A stretch of 19,821 nt of DNA from positions 1 through 19,821 of the forward strand of contig JBDHKN010000082.1 in assembly GCA_039586365.1 (NCBI GenBank). The letters run 5' to 3'. Shown here one piece after another: positions 4,543 through 19,821 of this stretch (positions are counted from its first letter, which is position 1; each line of letters starts with the position of its first letter). The notes under the pieces were generated by a model that was not told where the DNA came from, searched no databases, and was given only the letters and a program-made list of their open reading frames with translations. Made by a program: the position numbers and the translations under genes. This DNA is from Gemmatimonadota bacterium. GTDB taxonomy: Bacteria > Gemmatimonadota > Gemmatimonadetes > Gemmatimonadales > GWC2-71-9.

Positions 4543-6969
4543 ATGACAGTGAAGGAACTGGGGCCTGCTGCGCTGTATCGTCGCTACGATCCCGAAGAGT
4601 TCGACTTCGAGACAACCGCCGAGCTCGAGGATTTGACCGGCACCGTGGGCCAGCCGCGGGCGGTTGCCGCAGTTGAGTTCGCCGCCGGAATAGCACGTGA
4701 GGGCTACAACATCTTCGCTCTGGGTGCACCCGGGGTCGGTAAGCACTCACTGGTGAGTCATTACTTGGAGAAGCACGCAGAGACCCGTGCGGTCCCGCCA
4801 GACGTCTGCTATGTGCACAACTTCGAAGAACCAGACAAACCGCGTCTGCTGCAGCTTCCGCCAGGCCGCGGCGTCGACCTGCGGCGGGACACGGCGAAAC
4901 TGGCCGAGAACCTGCGTGCTGCGCTCACGGGCGCTTTCGAGAGCGAAGAGTACCAGACCAGGCGTCAGGTAATCGAGGATGAGTTCAAGGAACGTCCTCG
5001 CGAGGAACTGCGAGACATAGAGGAGCGAGCCAAGCAGGAAGGTTTGGTGTTGCTGCGCAGTCCGGTGGGAATGGCATTCGCGCCGACGAAAGACGGCGAA
5101 GTGATGTCGGGGGACGAATTCCGAGCCCTGCCGGAGGAAGAGCAGAAGAAGATTCAGGAAAAGGTGGAGGGCTATCAGGAGGAGGCTCAGAAGGCGCTGC
5201 GACAGATGCCGAGTTGGGACCGTGACCGCCATACCCGAGTCAGAGACCTCGACCGCGAGGTGGTTGAAGCAGCGGTGGCAGCTCCGCTAGACGAGTTACG
5301 GCAGAAGTATGAGTCTCTGCCCGGGGTGGTGGCCTATCTGGACGCCGTGCAACACGATGTTGTCGAGCGCGCCCGTGAACTGGTCGAACAAGACGGACCA
5401 TCGGGGGAGGCTGTCATAGCGGTCGGACCCAAGGGACCAGATCGCAAGGCCTCGATGTCTCGCTACCACGTGAATCTGCTGGTGGACAACAGGGGTACCA
5501 CCGGTGCCCCAGTGATCTACGAAGACAATCCGACATACGACAACCTGATTGGCCGGATCGAGCATGTGGCCCAGTTCGGAGCACTGAGCACCGATTTCAA
5601 TCACATCAAGGCTGGTAGCCTGCACCGTGCCAACGGCGGCTACATCATGTTGGACGCCCACAAGTTGCTGCGTGCACCATACGCATGGGAGGCGCTCAAA
5701 CGCGCACTCCAATCCGGCAATCTCCGGATTGAATCACTCGGTCAAACCCTGAGTATGATGGCCGTGGTGTCGCTCGAGCCAGAGCCACTCCCCCTCAATG
5801 TGCAGGTTGTGTTGCTGGGTGAGCCGATCCTCTACTACCTCCTCAGCCAACACGATCCCGACTTTGAGGAACTCTTCAAGGTGGCATCCGACTTTGCCGA
5901 GCTGATGGATGCGACCCCTGAGAACGTGAAGGGATACGTCAGGCTGTTGGCGACGCTCGCACGTGAAGACAACCTCAGAAGATTCGACCGCAGTGCGGTG
6001 GCGCGCCTCCTGGAGTACAGCTCCAGAGTGGTAGGCGATCAAGAGAGATTGACGGCTCGCATAGGTGTGATCCACGACTTGCTGCGCGAAGCTGACTACT
6101 GGGCAGGCGTAAACGGAGTGGAAGTGGTGAAGGCACAACACGTCCAGCAGGCGATCGACGCACAGATCAACCGGGCAGACCGGGTCCGCGAGCGAGTACA
6201 CGAGCAGATCGCGATGGGGACGATCATGATCGATGTCGCGGGCGCCAAGGCCGGTCAGGTGAACGGGCTCTCGGTGCTGATGCTCGGCAACTTTGCGTTT
6301 GGGCGCCCGAGTCGCCTAACGGCACGAGTTCGACTCGGTCAAGGCAACGTGGTCGACATAGAGCGGGAAGTAGAACTGGGCGGGCCACTTCACTCCAAGG
6401 GAGTCTTGATTCTGGCTGGATATTTGGGTGCGAACTACACACCGGATCAGCCTCTCTCCCTCTCCGCCAGTATCGTATTCGAACAGTCGTACTCGGGCAT
6501 TGACGGTGACAGTGCTTCGGCCGCTGAATTGTTCGCCTTGCTTTCCGCCATCGCCGAGATACCGCTCAAACAGTCGCTCGCGGTGACGGGCTCGGTTAAC
6601 CAACACGGCGAGGTACAGGCGATTGGCGGCGTAAACGAGAAGATCGAGGGGTTCTTTGACGTTTGTTGCGCCAAGGGCATCACGGGTGAGCAAGGTGTCA
6701 TCATTCCAGCATCCAACGTCCGGCACCTGATGCTCAGGAGAGACGTAGTTGCTGCGGTCTCCAGTGGCCAGTTTCACATCTACCCCATCGAGACCATTGA
6801 TCAAGGGCTCGAATTGCTGACGGGGATGCCCACCGCAGCACGACAGTCCAACGGAGAATACCCCGAGGGGACGTTCAATCGCCTCGTCGAGACGAAGCTG
6901 CTGGAGTTGGCCGAGAAGCGTCGCGCGTTCGGCGCTCGAAACGGCGCTGACAAGGAACCTGCAAACTAG
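4543..6969 (+). CDS. Lon-like protease (S16, LonC-type) with AAA-like domain and long coiled-coil insertion
   Basis: Walker A GAPGVGKH, GSLHRANGG, catalytic Ser in DGDSAS and Lys in GGVNEKIEGF. ATG 4543 follows GGGAG; alternative start 4516. Confidence 0.92.
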   Translation: MTVKELGPAALYRRYDPEEFDFETTAELEDLTGTVGQPRAVAAVEFAAGIAREGYNIFALGAPGVGKHSLVSHYLEKHAETRAVPPDVCYVHNFEEPDKPRLLQLPPGRGVDLRRDTAKLAENLRAALTGAFESEEYQTRRQVIEDEFKERPREELRDIEERAKQEGLVLLRSPVGMAFAPTKDGEVMSGDEFRALPEEEQKKIQEKVEGYQEEAQKALRQMPSWDRDRHTRVRDLDREVVEAAVAAPLDELRQKYESLPGVVAYLDAVQHDVVERARELVEQDGPSGEAVIAVGPKGPDRKASMSRYHVNLLVDNRGTTGAPVIYEDNPTYDNLIGRIEHVAQFGALSTDFNHIKAGSLHRANGGYIMLDAHKLLRAPYAWEALKRALQSGNLRIESLGQTLSMMAVVSLEPEPLPLNVQVVLLGEPILYYLLSQHDPDFEELFKVASDFAELMDATPENVKGYVRLLATLAREDNLRRFDRSAVARLLEYSSRVVGDQERLTARIGVIHDLLREADYWAGVNGVEVVKAQHVQQAIDAQINRADRVRERVHEQIAMGTIMIDVAGAKAGQVNGLSVLMLGNFAFGRPSRLTARVRLGQGNVVDIEREVELGGPLHSKGVLILAGYLGANYTPDQPLSLSASIVFEQSYSGIDGDSASAAELFALLSAIAEIPLKQSLAVTGSVNQHGEVQAIGGVNEKIEGFFDVCCAKGITGEQGVIIPASNVRHLMLRRDVVAAVSSGQFHIYPIETIDQGLELLTGMPTAARQSNGEYPEGTFNRLVETKLLELAEKRRAFGARNGADKEPAN

Positions 6970-8544: not shown

Positions 8545-8859
8545 CGAGGCCCTGGTCGAAGGACCCGTGTCAGCCGGCCCCTGACCAACAGGGGTGCCTT
8601 GCCCTTGCGGTCGGCGTCGGGGGTGAAGGCAACCCCGAGAGGCACGATGGCCTTCAGCGGTCCTTTCATATTAAGAAGTTTACAGTTAATAACTTACGGC
8701 CCTGTTTTCGAGTTTTACATGAGGTCGTAATTAGTGGCCATACGCGCCTTGCGCGGTTGCCGCCTCGCCGCAAGGGGTCCTCGAGCCCTGAACCAAAATC
8801 TTGCCACCCCTGGCAATCAGGGATAGCTTCGGCATCCCTCCTTGAATAGAGAGCGCGCC

Positions 8860-9096
8860 GTGCCAGAGCCATCTTATGACGTCATGTTCACCCGAGACGA
8901 GCGCCGGGCGATTCGCCATATGCTGAACTCGCACGAGAAATCGCCCTCTTGTCCGCGCTGTGAAAGCCCGCTCGTAGTCAATGGAGGAATGGCCGGTAGC
9001 GGCTATCAGATGTTGCACGTGCGCTGCCAGCCGTGCTACCGGACAGCCTTCGTGGGTGAACTCCCAGGCGATCACTGGGCCAACCCCAACCAGTAG
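8860..9096 (+). CDS. Small CxxC-x24-CxxC putative zinc-ribbon protein, paralog 1
   Basis: CPRC...CQPC; aligns with three other ORFs in the window; GTG start after AGAGAG (start uncertain). Confidence 0.75.
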   Translation: MPEPSYDVMFTRDERRAIRHMLNSHEKSPSCPRCESPLVVNGGMAGSGYQMLHVRCQPCYRTAFVGELPGDHWANPNQ

Positions 9097-11678: not shown

Positions 11679-12064
11679 GTCGCGCGTAACACGCTCCTTT
11701 CGCATCTTCAGCGGAAGCAGACAACAAGCCAACCTTCAACCTACAACGGGCTCATCGATTGGGTAGTGTGTACGGCGTCACGCAGCTGCGTGGTGGGGCA
11801 CAATCGATCTCGGCGACGGCCAGCGACAGGTCTGACTCGACCGAGCGGCCAAGACACCGGGCCCAGCTGCCAATAACAGGAGGTACTGCGTCGTGTAGGG
11901 CGTTCCTGCTACGTGGCTGGAATCTCGTCGTGAGGGGCAAGCGGGATCAGACATCCCGGCCCTGCACACCGGCAGTCCAGCCGGCAGGTCGGAATCGCCT
12001 CAGCGGCAGCGGTAGCCAAGGGTAGGAAACTGCCGGCAGCGCTGCGGTGTATCAAAAAGTTTGT

Positions 12065-12280
12065 ATGGCAGCCCGCGATTCCATCACACCCGTCACGTTC
12101 TCCCGTGAAGAAATCCGGCTGATCCGGGAAATGGTCGGCACTCCGGAAGGAGCCTCTGTCTGCCCGAGATGTGGCGGCAAGCTCCAGGTGATTGGACCTG
12201 AGGGCGGTGGTACCCTGCCTACCGTGTGGCATGTGGAGTGTCTCCCGTGCCGTCGTGCGGCCTTCATTTCCGGTTCGTAG
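12065..12280 (+). CDS. Small putative zinc-ribbon protein, paralog 2
   Basis: FSREEIRLIREMV...CPRC...WHVECLPCRRAAFI. Confidence 0.75.
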   Translation: MAARDSITPVTFSREEIRLIREMVGTPEGASVCPRCGGKLQVIGPEGGGTLPTVWHVECLPCRRAAFISGS

Positions 12281-12363
12281 TCACGCGGCCACAGAACGAG
12301 ACCGGCTGTTCCCGCAGTCCTCGCACCATTGTGACTACGGGCAAAACAGCGCAACTTATCATC

Positions 12364-12597
12364 GTGCCGGACACACCACTCCCGTTCTCCCCCAAGGAAG
12401 TCGATCAGATCCGCGAGATGCTGAGCACCTCGAGGGAGCCTCCCAAGTGCCTGCTATGTGGAACTGAACTCCAAATGACCGAGTCACGCGGCGGCGGTGA
12501 GGCGAGTCGCGTGTGGCGCGTGGATTGCGCTTCCTGTCATCGCACAGCGATCATCGCGGAAACCGGTGGCCAGCGCCCGACTAGGCACGACGAGTAG
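12364..12597 (+). CDS. Small putative zinc-ribbon protein, paralog 3
   Basis: FSPKEVDQIREML...CLLC...WRVDCASCHRTAII; GTG start chosen by alignment with the paralogs. Confidence 0.72.
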   Translation: MPDTPLPFSPKEVDQIREMLSTSREPPKCLLCGTELQMTESRGGGEASRVWRVDCASCHRTAIIAETGGQRPTRHDE

Positions 12598-13489: not shown

Positions 13490-13702
13490 ATGTTCTCCCG
13501 CAACGAGATCAAAGTGATCCGTCACATGCTGGACTCGTGGGAGAAACCACCAGTCTGTCCCCACTGCCAGAGTGCGCTCGATATCCGAGGAGGCGGTGCA
13601 GGCAGCGGGTACCGGATGTTGCATGTGCGCTGCCGATCCTGCCACCGAGTGGCCTTCATTACGGAGTCCACAGGCGACAGCTGTCCCGATCCCGGCGGGT
13701 AA
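13490..13702 (+). CDS. Small putative zinc-ribbon protein, paralog 4
   Basis: FSRNEIKVIRHML...CPHC...AGSGYRMLHVRCRSCHRVAFI; most similar to paralog 1. Confidence 0.75.
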   Translation: MFSRNEIKVIRHMLDSWEKPPVCPHCQSALDIRGGGAGSGYRMLHVRCRSCHRVAFITESTGDSCPDPGG

Positions 13703-13767: not shown

Positions 13768-16452
13768 CTATTCCCACCTGAGGGCTTCCATCGGATCAAC
13801 CGCTGCGGCCCGCCGCGCTGGAAGGTAGCTGGCCAGTAGAACCACACTCAGGAGCAGCAGCGAGACCGCTCCGTAGGTCGCCAGGTCAACCGGGCCCACT
13901 CCGAAGAGCAGAGCGGCGATTAGGTGCGTGAAGCCGACCGCTGCCACGAGGCCTATCGCCAAGCCTGCGGCTCCCACCACGCCACCCTGGCGGAGCACCA
14001 ATCCGCGTACGTCCTCACGTCGCGCACCGAGGGCCAGCCGAATCCCCATCTCACGAGTGCGCTGAGCCACCGTGTAGGAGATCACACCGTACACTCCAAC
14101 CATTCCCAGAATCAGCGCAACAGCCGCTGCGATGCCGAGCATGACCAGGGTGAAAGACGTCCGGGACAGTGAGGCCGCGAGTATCTCATCCAACGTCATG
14201 ACCTGCGAAACCGGTAGGTCGGAGTTGACCGACCAGACCGCTTCCCTGATCTGGGGCAGCAGCCCCCGAGGATTCCGCAGGGACGTCCGAATGGCGTAGC
14301 GCAGATCCCGCATGACGTAGTCCTGGATACTCCAGAACCTGTCCATATACATGGGCCAATAGACCACCGACGGAGGATCTTCGGCCACACCCGTGACGTG
14401 CACATCGCCTACTACCCCGACGATCTCCCGCCACGGGGCCGACCGGTTCTCCCTGATACGCCCGCCAATCGCCTTGGACGGGTCCCCCCAATACTCCCGC
14501 GCATAGTTCTCCGTTACCACCGCCACCGGCCGCTGCTCGAAGATGTCTGTCCACTCCAGGGATCTGCCGGCCAGGATGGGATTCTCGATGGTGGTGAAAT
14601 AGCCCGGAGTGATCCAGTTCATGCGCCTGAGAGGTTCCACCTCACCTTCGGTCACCGGGAACCCCTCCACTTCCAGGTCTTCCCACGAGTCCCAGTTGTC
14701 CATCGCCACTGAGGCCGCCGCGCTCGCAGATGTGACACCAGGTATCTGTACGATGTGCTCCAGTATCTGTTGATGGGTGCGGGCGGCATCCGCGCCGGTT
14801 GGTGCCTCGGACGCTGGAACCGAGAGACGCAGCGTGAGCACTTCCTGCGGCCGCTGGAATCCCGGCGGTACGCTCCGGAGACCCAGGAAGCTCCGGATCA
14901 TGAGACCCGAGCCAATCAGCAACACCAGAACCAGAGCGACCTGGGCTACAGCGAACACCGTTTGCATGCGGAATCGCCGCCGCCCGATACTGGAATTGCG
15001 GCCCGCCTCCTTGAGCGGCTCCACCAGGCCACTCCGCCCATAGGACATGACCGGGATGCTGCCGAACAGGAGGCCCGCCAGCACGGACACAGCCAGTGTG
15101 AAGAGGAGGGCGACAGGTTCAAGAGCAACGTCCTCTAACCGAGGCAGATTCGCGGGAGCCAGGTGCAGCAGGAGCCGAAGCCCGCCGGTGGCCAGTACCA
15201 GTCCTGCGGCACCCCCCAACAGCCCGATGAGGAGGCTCTCGGTGAGGAACTGGCGCGCCAGCCGACCCTTGGAGGCTCCCAGGGCGGTTCTGAGTGCCAC
15301 GTCTCGCTGTCGGCTCTCAGCCCGCACGAGGAACAGGTTGGCCACGTTGGTGCAGGCCACCAGCAGGACCAACGCCACAGTGCCGAAGACCACCCAGATC
15401 ACCCTACCCGCTGCACCAACCACGTCGTCCTTGAGCGGACGGACAAAGGTGCCGAATTCACGCGACTCCAGCACGGACAATGGGATGCCGCCGTATTCCT
15501 CACTGGCGAGAGCGGTCATGCTCTCCAGATCCCGCGTGGCATCCTCCACCGTGAAGCCCGGCCGCAGCCGGGCGATGCCGGGGAAGCTCCAATTCCCCAC
15601 GCTGACGCTGGCCCGGTCGAGGACCAGGGGAAGAAACAAGTCCGGGGATAGGCCGGCGAGTTTGAACCCTGCCGGCATGACACCGATGACGGTGCGGTCG
15701 GCACCGTCGATCCGAATGGTGCGACCTAACACGGCGGGATCGCTACCGAACCGCCGTGCCCAGTAACCCCGCGACAAGATCACCGGATAGCTGCTCTTAG
15801 GGGCCACGTCCTCGGCGGAGTATCCCCTCCCTAGGCTCGGATGCACCCCCAGGAGCGGAAACAGTCCGTCGGTCACTTGCAGGGCCGCTACCTGCTCAGG
15901 CTCGGCCAGGCCGGTTACCGTCACGGGAGCCCAGCGCCAGACGCCGATGTCTTCCACGGTCCGGGAGTGATCCCGGAAGGTCAAGTACAGCGCCGGCGAC
16001 AGCGGAGTCTCGGGGACTCCGATCCCGGGCATCGTGTGGTGGACCGCTACGAGCTCGTGGGAGTCCGGGAATGGCAGCGGTCTGAGCAGCACGCTGTTCA
16101 CCACGCTGAAGATCGCGGTGGTACCACCAATGCCCAGACTGAGCGTGAGTAGCACGATTGCCGTAAACGATGTACTCCTCAGCAGGCGGCGAACCGAGTG
16201 GCGGGCGTCTACGCTCAGGTCCTGCACCAGGCCCACTCCCCACGAATCCTGGGCGCGTTCCCTCGCCCGGAGGACACTGCCGAACTTGCTGAGCGCCTGG
16301 TGGCGAGCCTGTGTTGCGCTCATCCCCTGGCGCATGTGCTTTGCGGTCTCCTGCTCTATGTGGAACGCCATCTCTTCGTCCAGCTCCTCGCGCATCTTCC
16401 CCCAGTAGATGACGGCCCTCAGTCGAAATAGCAGGTTGGCGATCAAACGCAT
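13768..16452 (-). CDS. Duplicated MacB/FtsX-type ABC permease (ADOP family)
   Basis: 894 aa; ELDEEMAFH leader, LGIGGTTAIFSVVNSVLLRPLP, LVACTNVANLFL, QRTREMGIRLALGA, PARRAAAVDPMEALR; lies directly downstream of padR. Confidence 0.93.
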   Translation of the reverse strand: MRLIANLLFRLRAVIYWGKMREELDEEMAFHIEQETAKHMRQGMSATQARHQALSKFGSVLRARERAQDSWGVGLVQDLSVDARHSVRRLLRSTSFTAIVLLTLSLGIGGTTAIFSVVNSVLLRPLPFPDSHELVAVHHTMPGIGVPETPLSPALYLTFRDHSRTVEDIGVWRWAPVTVTGLAEPEQVAALQVTDGLFPLLGVHPSLGRGYSAEDVAPKSSYPVILSRGYWARRFGSDPAVLGRTIRIDGADRTVIGVMPAGFKLAGLSPDLFLPLVLDRASVSVGNWSFPGIARLRPGFTVEDATRDLESMTALASEEYGGIPLSVLESREFGTFVRPLKDDVVGAAGRVIWVVFGTVALVLLVACTNVANLFLVRAESRQRDVALRTALGASKGRLARQFLTESLLIGLLGGAAGLVLATGGLRLLLHLAPANLPRLEDVALEPVALLFTLAVSVLAGLLFGSIPVMSYGRSGLVEPLKEAGRNSSIGRRRFRMQTVFAVAQVALVLVLLIGSGLMIRSFLGLRSVPPGFQRPQEVLTLRLSVPASEAPTGADAARTHQQILEHIVQIPGVTSASAAASVAMDNWDSWEDLEVEGFPVTEGEVEPLRRMNWITPGYFTTIENPILAGRSLEWTDIFEQRPVAVVTENYAREYWGDPSKAIGGRIRENRSAPWREIVGVVGDVHVTGVAEDPPSVVYWPMYMDRFWSIQDYVMRDLRYAIRTSLRNPRGLLPQIREAVWSVNSDLPVSQVMTLDEILAASLSRTSFTLVMLGIAAAVALILGMVGVYGVISYTVAQRTREMGIRLALGARREDVRGLVLRQGGVVGAAGLAIGLVAAVGFTHLIAALLFGVGPVDLATYGAVSLLLLSVVLLASYLPARRAAAVDPMEALRWE

Positions 16453-16506
16453 GGTATGTCTCCCTCGTACGACGACTGCGCCGCGACGATGTGTGAGGCC
16501 GTCCGG

Positions 16507-16839
16507 TCAGGCCGTCGCCATGATGCGCCCGACCGCTGCGGCCAGGCGGTCCCAGTGCTCGGCCTCGATCCCCAGCCGCCGCTCCCCTGCCCGGGTCAGG
16601 GTGTAGTAGCGGGCCCGCCGGTTGTTCTGGGTCACCTCCCAGTACGACTTGATCCACCCCTCGCGGGTCAACTTGTGTAGCGAGGCGTAGAGCGAGCCTT
16701 GATTCACCTGGAGTTCGTCCCTGGAAATCTGCTGGATGCGTTCACTGATCCCCCATCCGTGCATCGCCTCCAGCGAGAGAACCTTGAGGATCAACATGTC
16801 CAGGGTTCCCTTGATCATGTCCGGCTTATTCCTGTCCAT
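16507..16839 (-). CDS. PadR family transcriptional regulator
   Basis: KGTLDMLILKVL, MHGWGI, GSLYASLHKL, RARYYTLT. Confidence 0.93.
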   Translation of the reverse strand: MDRNKPDMIKGTLDMLILKVLSLEAMHGWGISERIQQISRDELQVNQGSLYASLHKLTREGWIKSYWEVTQNNRRARYYTLTRAGERRLGIEAEHWDRLAAAVGRIMATA

Positions 16840-16895
16840 TGGTCCAATCCTGTGGGAATGATCTACTCCCGGTGGCCGAGCGGTCACACTCGCTT

Positions 16896-16912
16896 CTCTC
16901 GGTAATCAAGAG
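16896..16912. promoter_or_regulatory. Candidate PadR operator palindrome
   Basis: CTCTCG-N5-CAAGAG (one mismatch) 57 bp upstream of the padR start; function inferred. Confidence 0.4.
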
Positions 16913-16997
16913 GTGCTGTGGTATTTGATACCGAGGTTCGCGAAAAGGTTGTAGAGATCGCGACCCGGTCGGGGAGCAGGCGCTGCTATCAATAAGG

Positions 16998-17030
16998 ACT
17001 CCCGCAGCACGTGTGAGGTGTTGTGGGAGT
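16998..17030. terminator. Imperfect hairpin downstream of the distal tRNA fragment
   Basis: ACTCCCGCAGCAC / GTGTTGTGGGAGT 13-bp stem (two G-U pairs on +, two A-C mismatches on -), 7-nt loop; followed by CCTTATT on the minus strand. Confidence 0.45.
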
Positions 17031-17038
17031 ATGTCTTG

Positions 17039-17084
17039 TGGAGCGCCCGTCAGGACTCGAACCTACGACCCTCGGCTTAGAAGG
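17039..17084 (-). repeat. tRNA-Arg 3'-half fragment ending in CCA (att-like, distal)
   Basis: 17043-17084 matches tRNA 19607-19648 at 40/42 nt, from the anticodon loop to the acceptor stem, then TCCA. Confidence 0.92.
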
Positions 17085-17303
17085 GCGTGCCTGATTCGTG
17101 TCTCTTCGTACCCATTCGCGCTAATACGGTGTCATACGTGCTCATACGTTCACCACCACAGAACGTATGAACACGCATCGACACGTATGGAACCGTATGG
17201 TTCCGAATGGAAGTTCCACGGTCTGTTCCACAGTGAGGTAGAACCGACAACACCGCCCGGCGCGTGGCCGGGCGGTGCACTTCTGGCTGCAAGGACTAGT
17301 GGC
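17085..17303. repeat. Distal arm copy: inverted 10-bp-phased pentamer arrays, GTTCCAC direct repeat and hairpin
   Basis: About 90% identical without indels to 18687-18905 (about 21 differences in 219 nt). Confidence 0.9.
17251..17277 (-). terminator. Hairpin after cargo gene
   Basis: CACCGCCCGGC-N5-GCCGGGCGGTG perfect 11-bp stem about 26 nt after the stop; weak U tract. Confidence 0.6.
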
Positions 17304-17786
17304 TCAAGGCTGCTCTGGCTGAGGAAACGGTGCGTCGGAGTTCCATATATCCACCGTCCAGAGCCACGATCCGTCTGCTTGCTTTCGTGCAATCGAGACA
17401 TACTTGCCGGTAAATGTGATGGCTTCGGCCGAGTCTGCAGCCGCACCCGTCCACGACCAAGTCCCACGGTCAAACGCCAGGTCACCGTACCCATCGATTT
17501 CCAGCGAGGTAAGGGTGAATTCCTGAGGGGGTGGTTCTTCATCAGCAGCACATCCATCCCTCATGGCCGCCCGTCCCTCGACCGTCGGTTCGTCCTGAGG
17601 CAGCACAACAGCGTTATCAGCATACAACGCGATGCCAGCATCGCAGTCCCCCGCCAACGTCGCCTCGACGCCTGCGGCTCTCAACGCGTTCAGGGCTGCG
17701 ATGTCCTCGTCGGTCAGGGGAGCGACACCAGGTTGACAAGCGGCCAGAAAGGCCAGAGACAGTACGGCAAGTACGAGACGGCGCAT
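17304..17786 (-). CDS. NTF2-like (DUF4440/YybH/SnoaL-like) lipoprotein
   Basis: Lipobox FLAAC; YADNAVVLP..VEGRAA, GDLAFDRGTW, GKYVSIARKQADGSW..DIWNSD pattern; AAGGAGGG RBS. Confidence 0.88.
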   Translation of the reverse strand: MRRLVLAVLSLAFLAACQPGVAPLTDEDIAALNALRAAGVEATLAGDCDAGIALYADNAVVLPQDEPTVEGRAAMRDGCAADEEPPPQEFTLTSLEIDGYGDLAFDRGTWSWTGAAADSAEAITFTGKYVSIARKQADGSWLWTVDIWNSDAPFPQPEQP

Positions 17787-17881
17787 ACATCCCTCCTTGG
17801 GGTTTGGGAGGGCGACTCGAAGGGCGACCCAGCGAAACTACGTGCTGGACTGGGGCACAGTAAGACCACAGTGCCCAAACA

Positions 17882-17904
17882 CCGCCCAGCGATAGGCCGG
17901 GCGG
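17882..17904 (-). terminator. Hairpin after cargo gene
   Basis: On the minus strand CCGCCCGGC / GCTGGGCGG stem followed by TGTTT; related in sequence to the other two cargo hairpins. Confidence 0.55.
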
Positions 17905-17935
17905 AGCGGAAGGGGTGACGGCACGAGGAGGCTGG

Positions 17936-18421
17936 CTACATGGACTCGGGCGGCGGCAGATACGATTCGTGACCTTGGACAATCTTCCAGCCGTCCCCCG
18001 TGCGCTCCCAAACAGTCGTCCATACACCTCGCAGGGCCGTTTCTACCCCAGCGGTATCGACCCCTGCCCACTCGAAGCTGGCGGAGAACACGGCGGCGTC
18101 TGGGCCGAGGACATTCACGTGCGCGTCTCCCCAAGCGCCACTGGTCACTTCCCGGACCGAGGTAAACACACCACCCCATGCAGTTACCATGGAGTCTCGG
18201 TTGGTGCCGAGTACGCCATTCTCAGCCCACACGAAGTCGGAGCCGTAGGGCGCCATGAAACGGTCTACGTCAAGGTCTCTGAACGCTTCGAAGGCCTCAT
18301 CAGCCAGTCGGGTGACGGTGTCCCGAATCGCCACCCGTTCGGCGTCGGTGAGTTCGGTAGTGGCAGGTTGGCAGGCGGCCAGAAAGGCCAAGGACACGGC
18401 GGCAAGTGCGAGACGGCGCAT
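17936..18421 (-). CDS. NTF2-like (SnoaL/DUF4440) lipoprotein, divergent subfamily
   Basis: Lipobox FLAAC; VNVLGPDAAV and WTTVWERTGDGWKIVQGHES motifs; AAGGAGGG RBS. Confidence 0.88.
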   Translation of the reverse strand: MRRLALAAVSLAFLAACQPATTELTDAERVAIRDTVTRLADEAFEAFRDLDVDRFMAPYGSDFVWAENGVLGTNRDSMVTAWGGVFTSVREVTSGAWGDAHVNVLGPDAAVFSASFEWAGVDTAGVETALRGVWTTVWERTGDGWKIVQGHESYLPPPESM

Positions 18422-18643
18422 AGATCCCTCCTTTGGGTTTGGCAGCGCGACTCAGAGGGCGACGGAGCGAAACTAAGTCTCCGACTGCAACTCGGGAAGA
18501 CAACCATTTTGCCGCCTGCGGTGCATGGGCCCGGTGTGGCGTACCGCCGGGTGTTGTAGCTGGGCGGTGTGGTACCGCCGGGTGGACGGGATGGAGCCGC
18601 GGAGGTACCGCCCCGGCGCGGCGCGGGAAGGCGGGAGAAACGA
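18422..18643. repeat. Proximal arm/leader copy
   Basis: Roughly 80-85% identical to 19386-19605; its gene-proximal part also recurs at 17787-17866; three GTACCGCC motifs. Confidence 0.88.
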
Positions 18644-18686
18644 CGCGCCCGTCAGGACTCGAACCTACGACCCTCGGCTTAGAAGG
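18644..18686 (-). repeat. tRNA-Arg 3'-half fragment (att-like junction between modules)
   Basis: 41/43 match to 19606-19648. Confidence 0.92.
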
Positions 18687-18905
18687 GCGTGCCTGATTCG
18701 TGTCCATTCGTATCCATACGAACTAATACGGTGTCATACGTGCTCATACGTTCACCACCACAGAACATATGAACACGTATCGACACGTATGGAACCGTAC
18801 CGATCCGAATGGAGGTTCCACAGTCTGTTCCACAGTGAGGTAGAACCGACTACACCTCCCGGCGCGGGGCCGGGCGGTGTGCTCGTGGCTGCAAAGACTA
18901 GTGGC
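18687..18905. repeat. Distal arm copy: inverted 10-bp-phased pentamer arrays, GTTCCAC direct repeat and hairpin (18852-18880)
   Basis: Direct repeat of 17085-17303. Confidence 0.9.
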
Positions 18906-19385
18906 TCACGGCTGCTCTGGCTGAGGAAGCGGCGCGTCAAGGTTCCATATGAGCACCGTCCAAAGCCAGGAATCATCTGCTTGTTTCCGCGAGATCAAGA
19001 CATACTTGCCGGTGATCGTGAGGGGCTCTGCCACGTCCTCAGCGACAAACGTCTCAGACCAGGTCCCACGGTCAAACGCCAGATCACCGTACCCATCGAT
19101 TTGCAGCGAGGTAATGGTGAAATCCTGAATTGTAGCTTCTTCAGCCTCACATGCAGCTGTCATGGCCGCCCGTCCCTCAATCATGGGTCCGTCCTGAGGC
19201 AACAAGACAGCGTCCTCGGCAAGCATCGCGTTTGAGGCATCGCAGTCGCCCGCCAAGGTAGCCTGAATGTTTGCGGCTGTCAGATTGTTCAGGGCTGCGA
19301 TGTCCGCATCGGACAGGGGAGCTACACCAGGTTGGCAAGCGGCCAGAAAGGCCAGAGACAGTACGGACAGTGTGAGACGGCGCAT
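18906..19385 (-). CDS. NTF2-like (DUF4440/YybH/SnoaL-like) lipoprotein
   Basis: About 70% aa identical to 17304-17786; lipobox FLAAC; AAGGAGGG RBS. Confidence 0.88.
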   Translation of the reverse strand: MRRLTLSVLSLAFLAACQPGVAPLSDADIAALNNLTAANIQATLAGDCDASNAMLAEDAVLLPQDGPMIEGRAAMTAACEAEEATIQDFTITSLQIDGYGDLAFDRGTWSETFVAEDVAEPLTITGKYVLISRKQADDSWLWTVLIWNLDAPLPQPEQP

Positions 19386-19605
19386 ACACCCCTCCTTTGG
19401 GTTTGGGAGCGCGACTCGGAGGGCGACGGAGGGAAACTAAGTCTCCGACCGCAACTCGGAAAGACAACCGTTTACTGCCTGCGGTGCATGGGCCCGGTGC
19501 GGCGTACCGCCGGGCGTTGTGCTGGGCCGTGTGGTATCGCCAGGTGAACGGGATGGCGGGACGGAGGTACCGCCCCGGCGCGGTGTGGGGAGGCGGGGGA
19601 AACAA
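19386..19605. repeat. Proximal arm/leader copy
   Basis: Direct repeat of 18422-18643. Confidence 0.88.
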
Positions 19606-19679
19606 CGCGCCCGGTAGGACTCGAACCTACGACCCTCGGCTTAGAAGGCCGATGCTCTATCCAGCTGAGCTACGGGCGC
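19606..19679 (-). tRNA. tRNA-Arg(UCU)
   Basis: GCGCCCG TA GCTC AGCTGGATA GAGC A TCGGC CTTCTAA GCCGA GGGTC GTAGG TTCGAGT CCTAC CGGGCGC G folds into a full cloverleaf; anticodon TCT; CCA not encoded. Confidence 0.97.
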
Positions 19680-19821
19680 CAGCTCCGCAATTCGCTAATG
19701 CCAACCCCTTACGCAACCTCATTCCGTAGAACCTGCTCTTCCGCCTCTACCGTGGGGGCAATTTTGGTGGCACTTCTCAGTGGGCGTCACAGACCTCTCA
19801 TCTGCTTCCTCGCGGCCTCCA

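Follow-up and report, generated by a model that had tools for sequence, protein, structure and literature searches.

TorI is an AlpA-like protein. Recombination directionality factors (RDFs), as described in the covered part of PMC7498355, bind cooperatively and head to tail to repeats lying one turn apart and bend att DNA, with Apl occupying five sites at 10–11 bp in attP. For TorI, the available parts of PMC2951348 and PMC3509656 report two blocks with five cooperatively bound sites in total, in which the words are GTTCG, GATCG and GTCCG. Tandem rows of small integrase-less units at a single target, in which every unit ends in a copy of the 3′ part of that target, are described as CIMEs and tandem accretion (PMC5704250, part of the text) and for the ssrA islands of Dehalococcoides (PMC3146451, part of the text).

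The locus analyzed here lies in a window of 19,821 bp that makes up all of contig C3 in a genome of 5.44 Mb (G000; 132 contigs, 86% complete), and resembles each of these systems in part. As in 186 Apl, lambda Xis and Pukovnik Xis (PMC7498355, covered part), short words lie one helical turn apart, about five per run, within an att site and beside integrase arm and core sites; the repeats of those systems are described as direct, whereas here opposed blocks of 5 and 5–6 words share one lattice, giving 10–11 sites. The words are direct (head-to-tail) within each block, and the blocks are opposed. The TorI sites in attL of the KplE1 prophage at tRNA argW also lie in a tRNA-Arg att site and in two blocks, and the mutated words GTTCG, GATCG and GTCCG resemble RTWYG (PMC2951348 and PMC3509656, parts available), while arithmetic on the site coordinates given in the covered part of PMC2951348 implies 10- and 20-bp steps. 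However, the TorI sites in these accounts overlap the integrase promoter in attL, whereas the present array is in attR and the integrase points to the tRNA. CIMEs, in the part of PMC5704250 covered, keep both attL and attR, whereas an attL arm pair was sought in the window units and not found, so that these units are more decayed or chimeric than CIMEs. Neither RDF arrays nor decayed islands in tandem at tRNAs are new; what is unusual here is the two-way layout of excisionase-type sites. In the literature searched, where classic RDF papers are thinly represented, neither opposed RDF arrays nor this integrase clade was found described, which is weak evidence of novelty; the parts of PMC11963761, PMC11773190 and PMC12266134 covered contain nothing on opposed arrays.

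Organization of the Locus

Two units, A and B, of about 0.96 kb and 1.6 kb, were found behind the intact tRNA-Arg(TCT) gene, and their features are listed in Table 1. On the minus strand, unit A runs from the intact tRNA through a 135-bp flank, a DUF4440 gene, a GC hairpin, CTGTGGAAC twice, five RTAYG words, a gap and six inverted words to a tRNA 3′ fragment, and unit B repeats this order with two DUF4440/SnoaL genes. The displaced tRNA 3′ fragments (17087–17043 and 18689–18644) begin at the anticodon loop and cover tRNA positions 29–73/74 by BLAST. Between the two units the flanks are 87%, the arrays 90% and the tRNA fragments 100% identical.

Table 1. Features of the tRNA-Arg(TCT) locus, with positions in the window.
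Feature	Position	Strand	Evidence
Intact tRNA-Arg(TCT), target gene	19606..19679	-	tRNA calling
Left flank of unit A behind the intact tRNA; without GTGGRAC arm pair	19471..19605	-	Arm-matrix scan
DUF4440 gene, cargo of unit A; 72.5% aa identity to 17304–17786	18906..19385	-	Pfam search
GC-rich hairpin after the unit A DUF4440 gene	18851..18880	-	Repeat family D8
Copy 2 arm-type-like pair, CTGTGGAAC twice	18815..18835	-	Arm-matrix scan
Copy 2 arm-side array, 5 pentamers	18766..18810	-	Lattice check
Copy 2 core-side array, 6/6 exact pentamers	18696..18750	+	Lattice check
Second tRNA-Arg 3′ fragment, junction of units A and B; loop 18685–18679	18644..18689	-	BLAST with window tRNA
Left flank of unit B; 87% like flank of intact tRNA; without GTGGRAC arm pair	18508..18643	-	Arm-matrix scan
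Second SnoaL/DUF4440-like gene, cargo of unit B	17936..18421	-	PF13474, E 1.2e-10
DUF4440/SnoaL-like gene, cargo of unit B	17304..17786	-	PF14534, E 3e-12
GC-rich hairpin closing the DUF4440 gene; terminator-like, yet not called by terminator scan	17249..17278	-	Repeat family D8
Arm-type-like pair CTGTGGAAC/CCGTGGAAC, 12-bp period; putative integrase arm sites	17213..17233	-	Repeat search, matrix
Arm-side array, 5 pentamers (RTAYG on - strand), 10-bp steps, 125 to 85 bp from loop	17164..17208	-	
Central gap, one empty lattice slot; dyad centre of both arrays	17149..17163	.	
Core-side array, 6 pentamers (ATTCG/CTTCG/ATACG), 10-bp steps, 65 to 15 bp from loop	17094..17148	+	
tRNA-Arg(TCT) 3′ fragment, attR core of unit B; loop CTTCTAA (17083–17077), putative crossover overlap	17043..17087	-	BLAST, tRNA positions 29–73, 93%

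The window units contain a complete attR and lack an integrase gene, an excisionase gene and an attL arm pair; only DUF4440/SnoaL genes stand between the tRNA and the fragments, with the integration and transfer genes lost. No PF00589 integrase match was obtained on contig C3, and 11 were obtained elsewhere in the genome; members of the clade considered below were found only on contigs C116 and C30. Units A and B are likely decayed remnants that were stacked at tRNA-Arg by repeated insertion or duplication, and they would be active only if proteins were supplied from elsewhere.

No sigma-70 promoter match was found within 16850–19821. Two long ORFs that cross the arrays (17013–17918 and 18525–19235) gave no Pfam match and were rejected as genes, being taken as antisense shadows of the DUF4440 genes. 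The two tRNA fragments with their adjoining bases (17043–17093 and 18645–18695) are identical at 51/51 positions, and the 3′ side of their T-stem, CCTGA, mismatches both its own 5′ side and the intact tRNA (CCTAC), possibly marking a chimera that arose through gene conversion. Directly outside the outer tRNA fragment lie a PadR regulator and a duplicated MacB/FtsX permease (13768–16887), and four related small ORFs with two CxxC motifs each and no Pfam match are located at 8842–9096, 12047–12280, 12226–12597 and 13490–13702 (repeat families D5/D6). The genome holds many more DUF4440-like genes, three of them beside a tRNA-Pro 5′ fragment and an integrase gene on contig C50.

Periodicity of the Pentamer Arrays

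Eleven pentamers (RTWYG/CRWAY) occupy 11 of the 12 slots of a single 10-bp lattice, with all starts at the same residue modulo 10. In copy 1, the core side reads ATTCG at 17094, CTTCG at 17104 (one mismatch), ATTCG at 17114 and ATACG at 17124, 17134 and 17144; slot 17154 is empty, and the arm side reads CGTAT at 17164, CGCAT at 17174 (one mismatch), CGTAT at 17184 and 17194 and CGAAT at 17204. Copy 2 is offset by +1602 bp with no indels in the alignment; its six tRNA-side words are all exact, and CATAT at 18766 and CGTAC at 18796 on the arm side carry one mismatch each. The GTTCCAC pairs start at 17213 and 17225 in copy 1 and at 18815 and 18827 in copy 2. The initial annotation, which had listed the pentamer starts from 17094 to 17144 and from 17164 to 17204, an indel-free second copy and a GTTCCAC direct repeat of 12-bp period, was therefore right at every position, with two words per copy having one mismatch.

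The arrays stand out against the rest of the genome. A scan for (ATWCG-N5)n arrays, as the initial annotation had proposed, on both strands of all 132 contigs found at least four exact ATWCG words in six slots at period 10 only at the two window loci, while exact ATWCG runs at other periods reached at most two words at periods 8, 9 and 12, and three words once at period 11. With the relaxed word RTWYG, which was defined only after the copies had been seen, the 11-slot score was 11 and 9 at the window loci and ≤5 elsewhere in the genome. The trimer autocorrelation at lag 10 gave z = 10.2 and 13.1 at the two copies, relative to 1000 dinucleotide shuffles.

Differences between the two copies fall in 5 of 55 pentamer positions and 6 of 60 spacer positions, and the words are thus no better kept than the spacers. 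It had been argued earlier that the bases between pentamers vary from unit to unit and that simple slippage could not have produced the array. The variation is present, but the spacers are partly alike, and a homologous arm (L111) is short of exactly four whole units (40 bp), so that unit-wise slippage or deletion does happen.

The Putative Arm-Type Pair and Its Integrase Clade

Two integrase genes of this genome have, at their 3′ ends, pairs near-identical to those of the window; one gene is beside tRNA-Met (C30) and cut by the contig end, and the other is beside tRNA-Lys (C116) and 3′-deleted. With the integrase of this genome as query, relatives were obtained from 19 of 300 other genomes of the order, and the named records of the clade are from Gemmatimonadota; no relatives were matched in viral contigs. 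A tRNA gene (Lys, Met, Leu, SeC or Phe) lies within 1.5 kb at 22 of 24 integrase loci, and none of these 22 is at tRNA-Arg(TCT). In many of these loci, a (C/T)GTGGGAC-like pair stands between the tRNA and the 3′ end of the integrase gene.

An arm matrix built from 24 attL half-sites of the clade ranked the two GTTCCAC pairs first in the whole window, with scores of 24.9 and 23.0 and the next at 15.3, in agreement with the earlier proposal that integrase arm-type sites adjoin the arrays. On the left flanks of units A and B, the matrix scan found no attL arm pair, the best single sites reaching 3.1 and 4.9 bits. Judged by its place, the repeat pair would represent integrase-binding arm sites.

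Conservation of the Layout in Related attR Arms

Among 16 integrase regions, seven contain a tRNA 3′ fragment that begins at the anticodon loop together with an arm pair 105–125 bp upstream, corresponding to six elements of 7–11 kb and one of 3 kb; one region contains a 5′ fragment, and eight have no tRNA fragment within the stretch fetched. The periodicity at lags 10 and 20 was significant at p < 0.01 in six of nine arms and at p < 0.05 in seven, the weak arms being those of two intact elements with int and xis, G058:C17 (p = 0.29) and G444 (p = 0.051). Different words recur periodically in some arms of the clade, and opposition was not seen there. The tie of arrays to att sites that the first reading had presumed is borne out by five congeners, in which a lag-10 z > 4 was obtained in the 105 bp before 11 of 13 tRNA-Met/Lys 3′ fragments vs one of six intact tRNAs, though some of the 13 belong to arms of different integrase families and the five genomes are related.

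A further four RTAYG arms came to light, one at tRNA-Met (G003/L025) and three among 15 pattern matches in metagenomes, namely L111 at a tRNA-Arg fragment and L114 and L119 at tRNA-Met fragments. The phasing at homologous loci, on which the initial annotation had staked its reading beforehand, is kept in all four; in every RTAYG arm, the arm side has five words spaced by exactly 10 bp, at a distance of 23 bp from the pair. The first word lies 125, 125, 85, 114, 114 and 114 bp from the loop in the six RTAYG arms, corresponding to a loss of four units in L111 and a gain of 11 bp in the window. The arm sites are 137 and 125 bp from the loop in seven of eight non-window arms, 136 and 124 bp in the eighth, and 148 and 136 bp in the window, a shift of +11 bp or one turn, and the gain in the window fits a need to keep the helical phase.

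Five arms with the same GTGGRAC pair carry RCTYG words instead; here too a block on the arm side faces one on the core side, both at unchanged offsets, with several slots degenerate. In the RTAYG and RCTYG families alike, units start near 114, 104, 94, 85 and 75 bp and near 55, 45, 36, 26 and 16 bp from the loop. In the same integrase clade, L102 (G594) duplicates the 5′ half of tRNA-Phe near 6294–6490, and RCTYG/CRAGY words and an arm pair were observed by eye downstream of the tRNA-Phe fragment, in mirror order.

Used as a DNA query against 401 genomes of the class, the array gave only one 22-bp match (E 0.005), and a pattern of the arm plus CCATTCG gave one other match, with two mismatches, in 401 genomes of the phylum. 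The ATACG version is thus rare, and it was not found outside the genus among the genomes searched. In viral contigs, a bare opposed-TACG pattern hit 18 loci, none with a called tRNA, and these were rejected as homologues, being tandem or unrelated repeats by eye; 12 of 15 pattern matches in metagenomes had no array or tRNA fragment and were dropped. A strict RTAYG pattern gave no match in five congeners, but the known G003 arm escaped it as well, which makes this negative uninformative.

All six RTAYG arms follow a DUF4440-like gene that starts with MRRL and a shared GC hairpin (window 17304–19470; L025, L111, L114 and L119). The leader is similar where seen, while the DUF4440 paralogue in the slot differs.

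The Candidate Directionality Factor

An ORF of 60–70 residues lies directly upstream of the integrase gene in four of six complete elements, and two of seven congeners contain it, both beside the integrase. Relatives of this candidate RDF numbered 141 at E values up to 0.001 (50% clusters), and 97 of them were aligned with the query, very long and some other rows being left out. Of these 98 members, 18 match Pfam AlpA and seven HTH_17, while 18 match phrog_66, "excisionase and transcriptional regulator". The best solved structures for the family profile were the AlpA-family 8c3t (E 0.0076) and then 6ama (E 0.16). The candidate sequence alone has no Pfam or PHROG match, and its top ESM Atlas matches are unnamed, with AlpA and HTH_17 clusters appearing only at 0.88, no more than a lead. 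An association of such arrays with small HTH excisionase genes had been put forward for testing at the outset, and in the sister elements given above an AlpA/excisionase-like gene precedes the integrase; the window units have no such gene.

In the predicted recognition helix, WVRR recurs in the four candidates from elements or genomes whose arms carry RCTYG, against WVME and WVLR in two from elements with different words; this hint comes from only six proteins, two of which are linked by genome and not by contig. No RDF linked to the RTAYG/ATACG word was found. The genome of the window, which is 86% complete, yielded no member of the candidate family and no AlpA match, and nine HTH_17 matches were located elsewhere in it.

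Proposed Function and Alternative Explanations

The arrays are probably the binding track of an AlpA/Xis-type RDF at the attR end of a tyrosine-integrase element that would recombine at the tRNA anticodon loop. The phasing kept in homologues and the tie of the arrays to att sites support the excisionase or directionality-factor reading given in the initial annotation, with binding and a role in excision as what we infer from them. Small winged-helix monomers would each bind one word per helical turn and polymerize head to tail along a block, and the two blocks, facing each other across the empty slot, would bend the arm. The bent arm might then allow the integrase bound at the pair to reach the core, favoring excision, with the crossover presumably in the tRNA anticodon loop. 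No clean circle or empty-site junction was found in the contigs of four DNA runs, which are short and patchy, none spanning the stretch.

A fuller proposal is offered only tentatively. In this clade of tRNA-targeting elements, an AlpA-like protein, as yet uncharacterised, may form two filaments that meet head to head in a single 10-bp register. The word (RTAYG, RCTYG or others) would be recoded for each element along with the recognition helix, so that elements sharing an integrase arm would each have their own key to excision; the ATACG version may be an integrase-less module in which the slot next to the arm is filled with differing DUF4440 lipoprotein-like genes. If these readings are right, the sequence alone would reveal the excisionase sites of this clade, a kind of site mostly too degenerate to recognize, and a natural series of words and proteins would be available for how AlpA-type directionality factors choose DNA. 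It could also be tested whether opposed filaments bend the att arm otherwise than single head-to-tail runs do, and, in a phylum that has received little study, the att ends of integrase-less islands could be recognized by the periodic signal.

The opposed words might instead belong to a long imperfect hairpin of the tRNA-sense strand, as RNA, single-stranded DNA or a cruciform, with the 10-bp words as a by-product of its growth, an explanation that we consider improbable. The window region does fold better than dinucleotide shuffles (z = -3.9 to -5.5), more strongly on the tRNA-sense strand, and the sense-strand z is below -3 in eight of ten arms. The 27-pair stem of the window is 90.5% paired over the six RTAYG arms, with one of 500 shuffles as high, in a structure taken from the fold of the window itself; one-sided changes in the stem are of G-U/U-G type, and three pairs are altered on both sides. 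However, such a G-U pattern would also be expected from strand-biased C-to-T/A-to-G drift in a tolerant RTAYG site, and the covariation term of RNAalifold is unfavorable (+1.19). Facing spacers are no more complementary than non-facing ones (1.45 vs 1.35 of 4, in 40 and 128 comparisons; 2.17 vs 2.14 with G-U), counted in strict register with bulged pairing uncounted and unit positions set by hand. The words also keep their offsets in two arms with little or no folding signal, L154 (z -1.1) and G058:C17 (z +0.8), further periodic arms of the clade use different words and were not observed to be opposed, and a hairpin leaves the fixed offsets and the +11 bp step unexplained. Rfam returned no gathering-level match, only mir-466/mir-592 at 24–32 bits vs cut-offs of 67–85.

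It is very unlikely that the words are read by another architectural or regulatory protein, such as a host nucleoid protein, a repressor or the integrase itself. Such a reader would account for a genome in which no cognate RDF gene was found and which yet keeps two array copies at 90% identity, and for the complete element G569, which lacks an RDF gene and has a MerR/HTH_17 ORF elsewhere. Nevertheless, the word varies among elements within one genus (RTAYG, RCTYG and others), which suits a reader encoded by the element better than a single host protein. In the host genome, arrays of this word occur only at the two window loci, and WVRR is common to the four RCTYG-linked candidates and absent from the two with different words. 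Less credible again, and hardly tenable in our view, is the neutral growth of a 10-bp repeat, as in a minisatellite, within an att remnant that is dead, though L111 has lost four whole units, the pentamers and spacers of the window copies have diverged equally and the units look decayed. The same unit number and offsets recur with a different word in independent elements, some of them with int and xis, and tandem slippage produces neither spacers that vary nor a second block that faces the first in register with it; this explanation is largely refuted because the layout is conserved. A partition site or iteron was rejected, there being no such genes in the units and the position tracking att cores.

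Other tRNA Fragments

In three stretches (L025:8001–8125, L119 and L137), the T arm of the tRNA-Met fragment is split by a short hairpin-like insert. Other tRNA fragments of the host genome (Trp, Phe and Pro), at C51:600–780, C125:154–400, C94:23900–24171 and C8:70–360, are preceded by other arm pairs and by short repeated words, e.g., GGGAC, and the architecture therefore looks general for the tRNA islands of this genome. A lone 5′ half of tRNA-Arg(TCT) lies downstream of tRNA-Pro(TGG) at G000:C87:91111–91290, as in several relatives, and is followed by TCCG repeats and a pair TGCCACC...TGCCACC, with a matching pair at 19752–19772 before the intact tRNA of the window. This suggests that a third element, with an integrase of another family, duplicated the tRNA-Arg 5′ half (C87; window 19680–19821).
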